This document shows, in pieces, positions 668 to 43,837 of a stretch of 64,000 bases of DNA (positions are counted from its first letter, which is position 1; the number at the start of each line of letters is the position of its first letter). The stretch is from assembly GCF_050920415.1 (NCBI RefSeq), contig NZ_CP169309.1, one strand, 5' to 3'. A model generated the notes under the pieces. It was not told where the DNA came from. It ran no database searches and saw only the letters and a list, made by a program, of their open reading frames with translations. The DNA is from Escherichia coli. GTDB taxonomy: Bacteria > Pseudomonadota > Gammaproteobacteria > Enterobacterales > Enterobacteriaceae. Both the position numbers and the translations under genes were made by a program.

Positions 668-1819
668 ATGGCAGCTTCAACCTTTTTTATTCCTTCCGTG
701 AATGTTATCGGCGCTGATTCATTGAATGATGCAATGAATATGATGGCAGATTATGGATTTACCCGTACCTTAATTGTCACTGACAATATGTTAACGAAAT
801 TGGGTATGGCGGGCGATGTGCAAAAAGCACTGGAAGAGCGCAATATTTTTAGCGTTATTTATGATGGCACCCAGCCTAACCCAACCACGGAAAACGTCGC
901 CGCAGGTTTGAAATTACTTAAAGAAAATAATTGCGATAGCGTAATATCCCTGGGCGGTGGTTCTCCGCACGACTGTGCAAAAGGTATTGCGCTGGTTGCA
1001 GCCAACGGCGGTGACATCCGCGATTATGAAGGCGTTGACCGCTCTGCAAAACCGCAGTTGCCGATGATCGCCATCAACACCACTGCGGGTACTGCATCAG
1101 AAATGACTCGTTTCTGCATCATCACCGACGAAGCTCGTCACATCAAAATGGCGATTGTTGATAAGCACGTGACTCCGCTGCTTTCTGTCAATGACTCCTC
1201 GCTGATGATCGGTATGCCGAAGTCACTGACCGCTGCAACGGGTATGGATGCCTTAACGCACGCTATCGAAGCGTATGTGTCTATTGCCGCCACGCCGATC
1301 ACCGACGCTTGCGCACTGAAAGCGGTGACCATGATTGCCGAAAACCTGCCGTTAGCCGTTGAAGATGGCAGCAATGCTAAAGCGCGTGAAGCAATGGCTT
1401 ACGCTCAGTTCCTCGCGGGTATGGCGTTCAACAACGCATCTCTGGGTTATGTTCATGCGATGGCGCACCAGCTGGGCGGTTTCTACAACCTGCCGCACGG
1501 TGTATGTAACGCCGTTCTGCTGCCGCATGTTCAGGTATTCAACAGCAAAGTCGCTGCTGCGCGTCTGCGTGACTGCGCTGCTGCGATGGGTGTTAACGTG
1601 ACAGGTAAAAATGACGCAGAAGGTGCAGAAGCCTGCATCAATGCCATCCGTGAACTGGCGAAGAAAGTGAATATCCCGGCAGGCTTGCGTGACCTGAACG
1701 TGAAAGAAGAAGATTTCGCGGTACTGGCGACCAATGCCCTGAAAGATGCCTGCGGCTTTACTAACCCGATTCAGGCAACTCACGAAGAAATTGTGGCGAT
1801 TTATCGCGCGGCGATGTAA
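668..1819 (+). CDS. yiaY: Iron-containing (group III) alcohol dehydrogenase
   Basis: 383-aa ORF with Fe-ADH-type glycine-rich and His-rich motifs ([16 protein letters not shown]); RBS AGGAG upstream; synteny selB-yiaY-aldB. Confidence 0.9.
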
Positions 1820-1832
1820 TCATCATTCCCAC

Positions 1833-1862
1833 AATGGCTGGCTAATTGTCAGCCATTTTTTC
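1833..1862 (+). terminator. Rho-independent terminator of yiaY (hairpin aatggctg..cagccatt followed by T-run)
   Basis: Inverted repeat plus T tract directly after the yiaY stop codon. Confidence 0.5.
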
Positions 1863-2019
1863 AACTCTCTCAAAATTTGCGATTTTTGAGAGAGTTTTAG
1901 TTATCTCTGTAATCCTTGCCCGTAAATTCGTGATAGCCGTCGTAAAGCTATCACCAGCTGGCGAAGATTTCGCCAGTCACGTCTACCCTTGTTATACCTC
2001 ACACCGCAAGGAGACGATC

Positions 2020-3558
2020 ATGACCAATAATCCCCCTTCAGCACAGATTAAGCCCGGCGAGTATGGTTTCCCCCTCAAGTTAAAAGCCCGCTACGACAAC
2101 TTTATTGGCGGCGAATGGGTAGCCCCTGCCGACGGCGAGTATTACCAGAACCTGACGCCGGTGACCGGGCAGCTACTGTGCGAAGTGGCGTCTTCGGGCA
2201 AACGAGACATCGATCTGGCGCTGGATGCTGCGCATAAAGTGAAAGATAAATGGGCGCATACTTCGGTGCAGGATCGCGCGGCGATTCTGTTTAAGATTGC
2301 CGATCGAATGGAGCAGAACCTCGAACTTTTAGCGACGGCTGAAACCTGGGATAACGGCAAACCCATTCGCGAAACCAGTGCTGCTGATGTACCGCTGGCG
2401 ATTGACCACTTCCGCTATTTCGCCTCGTGTATTCGGGCGCAGGAAGGCGGTATTAGCGAAGTGGATAGCGAAACCGTGGCTTATCACTTCCACGAACCGT
2501 TAGGCGTGGTGGGGCAGATTATCCCGTGGAACTTCCCGCTGTTGATGGCGAGCTGGAAAATGGCTCCCGCGCTGGCGGCGGGCAACTGTGTGGTGCTGAA
2601 ACCCGCACGTCTTACCCCGCTTTCTGTACTGCTGCTAATGGAAATCGTTGGTGATTTACTGCCGCCGGGCGTGGTGAACGTGGTTAACGGCGCTGGTGGG
2701 GAAATTGGCGAATATCTGGCGACCTCGAAACGCATCGCCAAAGTGGCGTTTACCGGCTCAACGGAAGTGGGCCAACAAATTATGCAGTACGCCACGCAAA
2801 ATATTATTCCGGTAACCCTGGAACTGGGCGGCAAGTCGCCAAATATCTTCTTTGCTGATGTGATGGATGAAGAAGATGCCTTTTTCGATAAAGCGCTGGA
2901 AGGCTTTGCACTGTTTGCTTTTAACCAGGGCGAAGTTTGCACCTGTCCAAGTCGTGCCTTAGTGCAGGAGTCAATCTACGAACGCTTTATGGAGCGCGCC
3001 ATCCGCCGTGTCGAAAGCATTCGCAGCGGTAACCCGCTCGATAGCGTGACGCAAATGGGGGCGCAGGTTTCTCACGGGCAACTGGAAACCATCCTCAATT
3101 ACATTGATATCGGTAAAAAAGAGGGTGCTGACGTGCTCACCGGTGGGCGGCGCAAGCTGCTGGAAGGCGAACTGAAAGACGGCTACTACCTCGAACCGAC
3201 GATTCTGTTTGGTCAGAATAATATGCGCGTGTTCCAGGAAGAAATTTTTGGTCCGGTGCTGGCGGTAACCACCTTCAAAACGATGGATGAGGCGCTGGAG
3301 CTGGCGAACGACACGCAATATGGCCTGGGGGCTGGTGTCTGGAGCCGCAACGGTAATCTGGCCTATAAGATGGGGCGCGGTATTCAGGCAGGGCGCGTGT
3401 GGACCAACTGTTATCACGCTTACCCGGCACATGCGGCGTTTGGCGGCTACAAACAATCAGGTATCGGCCGTGAAACCCACAAGATGATGCTGGAGCATTA
3501 CCAGCAAACCAAGTGCCTGCTGGTGAGCTACTCAGATAAACCGTTGGGGCTGTTCTGA
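2020..3558 (+). CDS. aldB: Aldehyde dehydrogenase B
   Basis: 512-aa product starting MTNNPPSAQ with RBS AGGAGA upstream; aldehyde dehydrogenase motifs; tool ORF 1846..3558 carries an upstream in-frame extension. Confidence 0.9.
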
Positions 3559-3835: not shown

Positions 3836-4021
3836 GTGAAAAGTGCAGACGTGATCGCCATCCTGAAGCAGCATGGCTGGGAACATATTCGAACCCGTGG
3901 TAGTCATCATCAGTTCCGCCACCCTGTCCATCCGGGTCTGGTGACGGTTCCGCACCCTAAAAAAGATATTAAGCCCGGTACGCTGGCGCAAATTGGGCGT
4001 CAGGCTGGTTTAACATTTTAA
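3836..4021 (+). CDS. HicA-family (YcfA-like) toxin-like small protein, type II toxin-antitoxin
   Basis: 61-aa ORF, GTG start, with GW..R.RGSHH.F.HP...TVPHP.KD...GTL..I..QAGL pattern typical of HicA; TATAAT at 3813-3818 upstream; immediately followed by a HicB-like ORF. Confidence 0.7.
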   Translation: MKSADVIAILKQHGWEHIRTRGSHHQFRHPVHPGLVTVPHPKKDIKPGTLAQIGRQAGLTF

Positions 4022-4037
4022 AATTTCAGGAGGCAAT

Positions 4038-4448
4038 ATGTTTTATCCCGCCTATATCCACAGTGATCCTGACGGCAGCGCCAGCGGTTTTTTCCCTGAT
4101 GTTCCAGGCTGTTATTTTGCTGGTGATACGCTGGACAACGCTTTCCAGGATGCGCGAAGTGCACTGGTCGCGCACTTCGAAACCTTATGCGAGATGAATG
4201 AAGAGTTGCCGCTTCCAGGCTCTGTGGAAACACATCTGGTCCAGCGTGCGCAGGACTTTATTGGCGGGCAATGGTTGCTGGTGGATATCAATATGAATCA
4301 GTTCGAAGGTCGGGCTGAACGTATCAATATTACGATGCCGAAAAGATTACTGAACAAGATTGATACCTACGTGCGCAATAACCCAGACTACGCCAACAGA
4401 AGTGCGTTTCTGGCGGAAGCTGCCCGGCGTGTATTGCCGGGCGTTTAA
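4038..4448 (+). CDS. HicB-family antitoxin-like protein with C-terminal ribbon-helix-helix DNA-binding region
   Basis: 136-aa ORF 16 nt after the HicA-like gene, RBS AGGAGG; C-terminal segment ITMPKRLLNKID...RSAFLAEAARRVL resembles an RHH motif. Confidence 0.7.
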   Translation: MFYPAYIHSDPDGSASGFFPDVPGCYFAGDTLDNAFQDARSALVAHFETLCEMNEELPLPGSVETHLVQRAQDFIGGQWLLVDINMNQFEGRAERINITMPKRLLNKIDTYVRNNPDYANRSAFLAEAARRVLPGV

Positions 4449-4780: not shown

Positions 4781-4941
4781 TATTTCAATATGATAAACCT
4801 CGACCTGTTGAAAAGCCAGGTAGCACACTTCAGAAAGTATATAAAAAACAATATGTCGTTATATAAATAAGGAAATTGCACTGCATCATGGCATTTCATA
4901 ATATGCGTTAATTGTTCTTTTTTATATTCTCTGAGGGAAAT

Positions 4942-5265
4942 ATGTTCCTGGACTATTTTGCACTGGGAGTGCTTATTTTTGTATTTCTGGTGATATTCTA
5001 TGGGATTATTATTTTACATGATATTCCCTACCTGATTGCTAAAAAACGTAATCATCCTCATGCCGACGCCATTCATGTTGCTGGTTGGGTGAGTCTTTTT
5101 ACGCTGCATGTTATCTGGCCATTTTTGTGGATTTGGGCCACGCTTTACCACCCGGAGCGGGGATGGGGAATGCAAAACCATGACTCCTCCGTTGTGCAAC
5201 TACAACAGCGTATTGCCGGGCTGGAGAAACAGCTCGCCGACATCAAATCCTCTTCTGCCGAGTAA
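4942..5265 (+). CDS. yiaW: DUF3302-family inner membrane protein
   Basis: 107-aa hydrophobic protein immediately upstream of the HlyD-family yiaV, arrangement as in K-12 yiaWV. Confidence 0.8.
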
Positions 5266-29859: not shown

Positions 29860-29966
29860 TTGCATTTCCTCGAGCCTTATCCGACTTGTCAGTCGGATAA
29901 GGCTTTTGCTCGCATCAGGTGGTTGTGCTGAGTTACCTGATGCGACGCCGACAATTCTCATCATCG

Positions 29967-43808: not shown

Positions 43809-43837
43809 AAAAAGCCTGCCATCTGGCAGGCTTTTTT
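43809..43837 (+). terminator. Rho-independent terminator of glyQS (aaaagcctgcc-atct-ggcaggctttttt)
   Basis: Perfect GC-rich hairpin followed by T-run. Confidence 0.65.

Follow-up and report, generated by a model that had tools for sequence, protein, structure and literature searches.

Between the terminator of yiaY and the promoter of aldB, the 64,000-nt stretch of Escherichia coli DNA analysed here (hereafter, the window) carries a perfect inverted repeat (IR), and the question is whether this IR serves one of its two neighboring genes or is a trace of something else. The first-pass annotation had described an exact 13-bp repeat with an 8-nt spacer at 1863–1896, lying directly after the yiaY terminator and about 125 bp before the aldB start. 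Indeed, the 13-nt arms are 100% complementary, the IR starts 2 nt past the T-run of the terminator, and 123 nt separate its end from the ATG at 2020 (Table 1). Our results suggest that the IR is O1, the upstream one of two operators, orphaned by the deletion of a fic gene whose −35 it would also hold, and we give this reading a probability of about 0.75.

Table 1. Coordinates of the features of the yiaY–aldB region in the window
Feature	Position	Strand	Sequence or structure	Basis or remark
yiaY (L-threonine dehydrogenase), upstream gene	668–1819	+		ORF list; RefSeq annotation of matching genomes
yiaY intrinsic terminator	1833–1861	+	10-bp stem, 5-nt loop, T6 run	Fold and terminator-like scan match
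IR left arm, left half-site of the putative relic O1	1863–1875		AACTCTCTCAAAA	C1867 is the derived base giving perfect symmetry
IR spacer	1876–1883		TTTGCGAT (8 nt)	Identical to the O1 spacer of the fic-bearing strain EC581
IR right arm, right half-site of the putative relic O1	1884–1896		TTTTGAGAGAGTT	
TTGAGA within the right arm	1886–1891		TTGAGA	Putative former −35 hexamer of the fic promoter
Residual 11 nt between O1 and the deletion junction	1897–1907		TTAGTTATCTC	Can be assigned in more than one way
Last 5 nt of the deleted fic ORF (...CTG TAA)	1908–1912	+	TGTAA	Comparison with fic-bearing alleles
aldB −10 hexamer, RpoS-dependent promoter	1984–1989	+	TACCCT	Hexamer as given in PMC5650638; position read from the window
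aldB (aldehyde dehydrogenase B)	2020–3558	+		ORF list; RefSeq annotation of matching genomes

The inverted repeat and its occurrence in E. coli

The IR is far from chance, since the window contains three perfect IRs with arms of at least 13 nt and a spacer of at most 20 nt, whereas 100 first-order Markov simulations gave 0.03 on average. The corresponding hairpin folds at −17.2 kcal/mol on the + strand and −16.8 on the − strand (z = −5.6 and −6.3, respectively, against shuffled sequences), and 4 of the 13 pairs of its stem are G-C. When the region 1500–2400 was scanned with the Rfam covariance models, only chance-level matches were obtained (E ≥ 1.1, with 14–18 bits versus gathering scores of 48–100). 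Of 5,426 complete E. coli genomes, 72 contain the exact 34-mer, another 509 a version with a single arm mismatch and most no IR, so the perfect form is strain-specific. The IR is absent from ~58% of the E. coli genomes, including K-12. Note that the two other perfect IRs of this size in the window are located at 29873–29904 (AGCCTTATCCGACT-tgtc-AGTCGGATAAGGCT, REP-like) and at 43809–43836 (AAAAAGCCTGCCA-tc-TGGCAGGCTTTTT, bidirectional terminator-like).

Three alleles of the yiaY–aldB spacer

A search of the yiaY–aldB junction against the 5,426 complete E. coli genomes distinguished three alleles of this spacer. In allele C (O157:H7 and others), a 1,296-bp gene annotated as 'Fic family protein' separates yiaY from aldB; fic is found in 1,576 genomes, as a single copy and always on the chromosome. 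The spacer is devoid of fic in 3,701 genomes, which comprise allele A, i.e., the window type, in about 574–581 genomes (no fic, O1 kept, and most of the second palindrome, O2, lost) and allele B in the ~3,100 others. Whole-genome megablast counts located the allele A site at one place per genome in 581 of 581 genomes and never on plasmids. Allele B, the majority form to which K-12 MG1655 belongs, is 36 bp shorter and has no repeat: taking exactly 36 bp, bounded by TATCTC direct repeats, out of the common A allele gives the MG1655 sequence (AAAC[TATCTC...TTAGT]TATCTCTGTAA), and the sole remnant of the IR is the 9-nt AACTATCTC of the left arm. Alleles A and B have the junction TATCTC/TGTAA in common, and the yiaY terminator (stem 1833–1857, T-run 1856–1861) is present in all three alleles. 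The aldB promoter is also the same in all of them, its −10 being located ~105 bp downstream of the IR centre; this hexamer, TACCCT, is quoted from Xu & Johnson 1995 in PMC5650638. In the type strain of E. albertii, fic, preceded by both O1 and O2, lies directly upstream of aldB.

The comparison of these alleles suggests how the window allele was formed. Indeed, colinearity of the window with the fic-bearing alleles stops at 1896, resumes at 1908 with TGTAA (the fic stop) and continues through the downstream DNA, with only 11 nt in between, which makes the window allele a deletion derivative in which O1 was kept whereas the −10, most of O2 and the gene itself were lost. Within these 11 nt, TATCTC at 1902–1907 corresponds in sequence to the left half-site core of O2; it is also the second copy of the direct repeat that bounds the K-12-type 36-bp deletion. 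The reverse event, i.e., a fic insertion into an empty site, is implausible because the site would need to hold by chance 9 nt of an operator arm able to pair with part of the insert. No intact fic ORF is present in the window, where only its last 5 nt are left, and the window site is therefore a relic, non-working member of the Fic-wHTH operators. In addition, fic was absent, at megablast sensitivity, from the genomes carrying the relic. Deletion by microhomology, with TATC in O2 and TTATCCGC near the fic terminus (3′ end) as partners, was considered and rejected, as its predicted product mismatches the window and the junction simply reads TATCTC/TGTAA.

Paired palindromes upstream of fic

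In O157:H7, O1 reads AACTATCTCAAAA-cttgcttt-TTTTGAGATAGTT, and O2 (ACTATCTCAATA-ttgcgctt-TTTTGAGATAAG) is found 50 bp downstream of it, ending 3 nt before the fic ATG. More generally, the fic-bearing strains carry AACTATCTCAAAA-N8-TTTTGAGATAGTT 81 nt and ACTATCTCAATA-N8-TTTTGAGATAAG 31 nt upstream of the fic ATG, both palindromes sharing the core TCTCAA-N12-TTGAGA with centres 50 bp apart, and the same layout is displayed by a second E. coli fic allele and by the E. albertii type strain. The window site can be aligned with the O1 sequences of O157, E. albertii and the fic-bearing strain EC581. It differs by one arm base from the O1 of EC581 (AACTATCTCAAAA-tttgcgat-TTTTGAGAGAGTT), which has the spacer and the right arm of the window together with the left arm of the common one-mismatch form. 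This base is position 1867, which is A in most alleles (left arm AACTATCTCAAAA) versus C in the window. In the homologous alleles (L002, L003, L005 and L088), an IR lies in the promoter region of a gene for a class II Fic with a C-terminal HTH.

To place these palindromes in a wider context, 80 homologous loci were listed from species-representative genomes, mostly distant homologues with three enterobacterial loci among them, and five exact-protein look-ups (Salmonella, Pantoea, Photorhabdus, Klebsiella and Pectobacterium) were added. Allowing at most one mismatch, TCTCAA-N12-TTGAGA occurs 17 times in 20.7 kb of fic-upstream DNA and 4 times in the remaining 606 kb of the same listed loci, i.e., 0.82 versus 0.0066 per kb, a 125-fold enrichment within these loci. 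Its positions are fixed: in nearly all loci O2 lies at −23 to −33, with O1 another 50–51 bp upstream. The pair of Glaciecola (L009) is located at −50/−101, counted from an approximate start, and Alcanivorax has three sites, at −125, −75 and −25. The motif precedes homologues ranging from 95% down to 37% protein identity (Pseudescherichia, another enterobacterium, Glaciecola, Pseudomonas, Alcanivorax and several MAGs), and the arrangement recurs in the five added genera despite unrelated neighbor genes (an autotransporter/AcaB island, HicAB, an integrase island and others). The constant partner of the sites is Fic alone, which itself carries a wHTH. Within the half-sites, the six core bases are nearly invariant, whereas the outer flanks and the 12 bases between the cores vary, a pattern better suited to recognition by a sequence-specific protein than to an RNA stem.

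The same comparison points to the promoter elements of fic. In Klebsiella and Pectobacterium, a consensus TTGACA replaces the upstream palindrome at the same distance from O2, and in the other loci a −10-like hexamer (TATACA, TATAAC or TATACT) stands ~17 nt past the TTGAGA of the O1 right arm, just before O2. The right half of O1 would thus serve as the −35 of the fic promoter, and O1 overlapping the −35 with O2 covering the transcript start would form a classic autorepression layout. It should be noted that O2 (4683–4717 of L002, and its homologues) ends 1–10 nt before the fic start codon, with no clear Shine-Dalgarno evident; if the transcript starts just upstream of O2, the whole 5′ UTR would be the palindrome and could fold as an RNA hairpin occluding the start codon.

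In the full alignment, the TCTCAA core is found with either of two variants of the recognition helix, SDNTARNDL and CSYNTAxxLN, so that protein–DNA covariation is not demonstrable; some Pseudomonas loci with the CSYNTAxxLN variant have a different repeat spacing. In three loci of the Pseudomonas fluorescens group (L012, L016 and L028), the ~100 nt upstream of fic are without the N12 operator and contain GTACTCAA-N19-TTGAGAC enclosing a small hairpin, plus, further upstream, CCTCTGA-tattgag-TCAGAGG, which may represent a variant operator geometry in the same Fic family.

The Fic protein and its known relatives

The Fic protein has 431 aa and contains a Fic domain with the catalytic motif HPFRDGNGRTSR (HPFRDGNGR), an SSQLEG inhibitory-helix motif upstream of it, which assigns the protein to class II, and a C-terminal HTH at approximately residues 361–417. 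The profile of its family aligns through the winged HTH of SoFic and PDB 8CIL, and the PADLOC model for SoFic, a single-gene defence system, matches residues 96–428 (E = 2.4e-43). However, the NCBIfam equivalog for SoFic scored 39.9 bits against a cut-off of 550, which means that this Fic is not a SoFic orthologue. The E. coli protein is a class II Fic AMP-transferase of the SoFic type, and its gene a candidate anti-phage or toxin gene.

The closest experimental parallel is CccR of Yersinia pseudotuberculosis, a class II Fic protein that carries an HTH at its C-terminus and binds DNA as a dimer (PMC9755527; PDB 7XUX). Footprinting, EMSA, ITC and reporters established that CccR occupies AGATAATCAT-N26-ATGATTATCT, which spans the −35/−10 of its gene, and represses its own promoter, with dimerisation needed for binding (PMC9755527). 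The E. coli Fic has the same domain order, and its Fic core matches 7XUX (profile E = 3e-16), but it aligns with CccR over the Fic domain only; moreover, the CccR site is a single pair, whereas two TCTCAA-N12-TTGAGA palindromes precede E. coli fic, 50 bp apart, and the window itself has no fic gene and a single site left. In the CccR dimer, the DNA-binding helices are 70.2 Å apart (PMC9755527), compared to ~71 Å (21 bp) between the arm centres of the window IR, an agreement that is a consistency argument only.

SoFic of Shewanella oneidensis (SO_4266) shares with the E. coli Fic the N-terminal dimerisation/inhibitory helix, the Fic domain and the wHTH. As a dimer, but not as a monomer, SoFic binds specifically to the 100-bp stretch that precedes its start codon (bioRxiv 10.64898/2026.07.09.737422); binding to its own promoter has thus been seen, and a role in transcriptional regulation suggested. 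In contrast to the E. coli sites, its promoter fragment contains ATGTCGAT-type repeats, according to our reading of Table S2 of that study, and TCTCAA-N12-TTGAGA was not found in the experimentally bound fragment. As the half-sites differ from those of both CccR and SoFic, the E. coli Fic family appears to have its own specificity. By analogy with these two proteins, Fic itself would be the ligand of O1 and O2.

The layout also recalls autoregulated promoters of type II toxin–antitoxin systems, in which two phased palindromes cover the −35 and the transcription start, and fic resembles these systems by its patchy presence/absence and island location. However, toxin, inhibitory helix and DNA-binding domain are held by a single Fic polypeptide, without a separate antitoxin gene. 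None of the papers retrieved gives a DNA site for the SoFic-like Fic-wHTH subfamily. Our results define, for this widespread subfamily, a conserved putative tandem operator (two TCTCAA-N12-TTGAGA, 50 bp apart, the upstream one over the −35), and provide a candidate binding site that is now directly testable for the Fic of E. coli O157/E. albertii (WP_000985752.1).

Probable history of the relic

Starting from the observed homology, allele structure, deletion junctions and operator conservation upstream of fic homologues, the simplest order of the alleles would be C, then A, then B, with slippage between the repeats on either side accounting for the loss of the palindrome. Where E. coli and E. 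albertii bear fic, the SoFic-type Fic encoded between yiaY and aldB would have O1 over its −35 and O2 between its −10 and ATG, and the Fic-wHTH dimer would bind both palindromes and repress its own transcription, as for CccR and as suggested for SoFic. In the window lineage, a deletion took out the −10, the greater part of O2 and all but the last 5 nt of the ORF, leaving O1 beside the yiaY terminator, where a site without its cognate protein would most likely be an inert, decaying scar. Later, one substitution conferred perfect symmetry, probably through quasipalindrome template switching that used the opposite arm as template, and the K-12-type majority allele, with its 36-bp palindrome deletion between TATCTC direct repeats, would be the next step.

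The relic is presumably inert in the window strain, since fic is gone, the aldB −10 is ~105 bp off and the same in all alleles, and K-12 does without the IR. This reading withdraws the IR from the candidate regulatory elements of aldB and makes it a scar of gene loss, which also explains the 9-nt AACTATCTC remnant in the yiaY–aldB spacer of K-12. The consequences for the window strain are ordinary, the gain being a tidy evolutionary explanation and, if the order given above is right, a natural example of stepwise decay (gene deletion, palindrome perfection, and palindrome deletion between direct repeats).

How the symmetry became perfect can be followed among the 581 genomes with the site, of which 509 have one arm mismatch (left AACTATCTC..., right ...GAGAGAGTT) and 72, including the window, are perfect. 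The T-to-G change in the right arm already exists in a fic-bearing strain, and the matching A-to-C change in the left arm came later, in a fic-less sublineage; the chance that a random substitution restores pairing is ~1%. In the sublineage with the perfect O1, a second repeat, 35 bp downstream, was also perfected, by two substitutions (GTGATAGC at 1930–1937 and GCTATCAC at 1947–1954, with GCTGTTAC elsewhere). Substitutions through which one arm becomes a copy of its partner are the hallmark of template switching, which makes quasipalindrome-associated switching the likeliest cause and probably the origin of the perfect symmetry. This process is a documented mutational mechanism in E. coli (PMC7202029), and the passage from an imperfect IR (509 genomes) to a perfect one (72 genomes) by a change copying the other arm corresponds to it, with the difference that the window case is deduced from natural variation alone. 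Selection, or import by recombination, may also have produced the perfect symmetry, and a symmetry regained in a fic-less lineage could mean that the site is still under selection.

Along these lines, it is conceivable, though we consider it very improbable, that the orphan site regained perfect symmetry and is kept in ~11% of genomes because it is still used, either by a Fic-wHTH acting in trans or as a hairpin insulator selected after the loss of fic. The trans-acting protein might come from a distant paralogue, an incoming mobile element or neighboring fic+ cells (as is reported for the T6SS-delivered CccR), and, if this were true, the expression of aldB or yiaY would be coupled to the presence of Fic.

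Alternative explanations

The function of the IR had been proposed to be either a second transcriptional stop or the binding site of a dimeric regulator. As a second intrinsic terminator, with UUUUAGUU after the hairpin, the IR would stop yiaY read-through and insulate aldB. A permissive consensus scan does list it (13-bp stem, 8-nt loop and T-rich tail), and its stable hairpin folds independently beside the yiaY terminator, but apart from this the evidence is unfavorable: the stem is A+T-rich, with just 4 G-C pairs out of 13, the T tract is not continuous (tail TTTTAGTT), and ~58% of E. coli, including K-12, lack the IR while keeping the same yiaY terminator and aldB promoter. In addition, the sites stand at a fixed distance upstream of fic in genera without yiaY, with a core that is invariant and not merely complementary. 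This explanation is thus unlikely; any termination at the IR would be incidental, and some added stop after yiaY could result. The proposal of a dimeric regulator site was right as to the kind of site, the IR being homologous to the O1 found before a Fic-wHTH gene, but not as to aldB, since it belongs to a lost fic promoter and K-12 has no IR. We give little credit to an operator at which a host transcription factor would control aldB or yiaY in the window strain. Its palindromic form, the two-turn spacing of its half-sites and its location ~105 bp upstream of the aldB −10 would suit such an operator; however, the IR is absent from K-12, and it is in K-12 that the control of aldB by Crp, Fis and RpoS was described. 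Indeed, the MG1655 aldB promoter, with its Crp, Fis and RpoS sites, is without the IR, whose sequence is already explained by homology to the fic operators, and its occurrence once per genome means that it is not part of a regulon-wide motif.

The yiaY–aldB spacer is a rearrangement hotspot with accessory-gene turnover, which raises the idea of a mobile-element end or a recombination site (a MITE, an IS terminal repeat or the att of a fic cassette). The presence/absence of fic, an IS200C in strain Nord122, an IS1-associated deletion in strain CP131 and the location of fic in islands in other genera would all agree with it. However, multiple dispersed copies, as for a REP, a MITE or an IS inverted repeat, do not exist: the IR is found at one place per genome in the 581 genomes, is absent from plasmids and has no second copy downstream of fic, and its distance to the fic ATG stays fixed whatever the context, as is usual for a promoter element. 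A mobile origin is therefore the least credible of these explanations, and an orphaned fic operator remains the reading that we favor.

Promoters within the relic region were also considered. An aldB-directed promoter created by the deletion (TTGAGA at 1886–1891, 16 nt, and TGTAAT at 1908–1913) is unlikely, as it has a G at −11, the critical position of a −10 hexamer, and the scan did not list it; note that some type-A alleles (e.g., strain EC1) have TGTAAC in place of TGTAAT. On the minus strand, the promoter-like match TTGAGA-17-GACAAT is a by-product of the symmetry of the palindrome.

Other features of the spacer and its flanks

Several strains show further rearrangements at this locus. 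In E. coli Nord122 (L087, 1–150), the end of an IS200C abuts the left arm of the relic operator, and in E. coli CP131_Sichuan (L004, 6040–6880) an IS1A follows yiaY, aldB and the downstream genes are gone, and glyS comes next. In the fic-bearing E. coli 382634_2f (L003, 7690–12145), aldB is followed directly by araD/sgbU/ulaD/lyxK/yiaO, with no yiaW-yiaT block, which represents a further structural variant on the downstream side of aldB.

Within the aldB promoter region of the window, a second IR at 1930–1954 (GTGATAGC-cgtcgtaaa-GCTATCAC) overlaps the Crp-like TTCGTGATAGCCGTCGTAAA. Its arms pair perfectly in the window and in strain MLI114, while K-12 and most strains have GCTGTTAC as right arm, with two mismatches; the bases adjoining it are CCAGCTGG in the window versus CCGACTGG in K-12. 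Between the Crp-like site and the aldB −10, a perfect 8-bp hairpin is found at 1957–1976 (CTGGCGAA-gatt-TTCGCCAG), the arms of which reach 10 bp in K-12 (GACTGGCGAA/TTCGCCAGTC), and it might be one of the reported Fis sites.

On the other side of aldB, a hicA/hicB toxin–antitoxin pair is located at 3836–4448 (HicA_toxin, E = 1.9e-23; HicB_lk_antitox, E = 8e-36), between aldB and yiaW (DUF3302, at 4912–5262). In O157:H7, no gene is annotated at the corresponding place between aldB and yiaW; accessory cassettes thus occupy both flanks of aldB in some strains.
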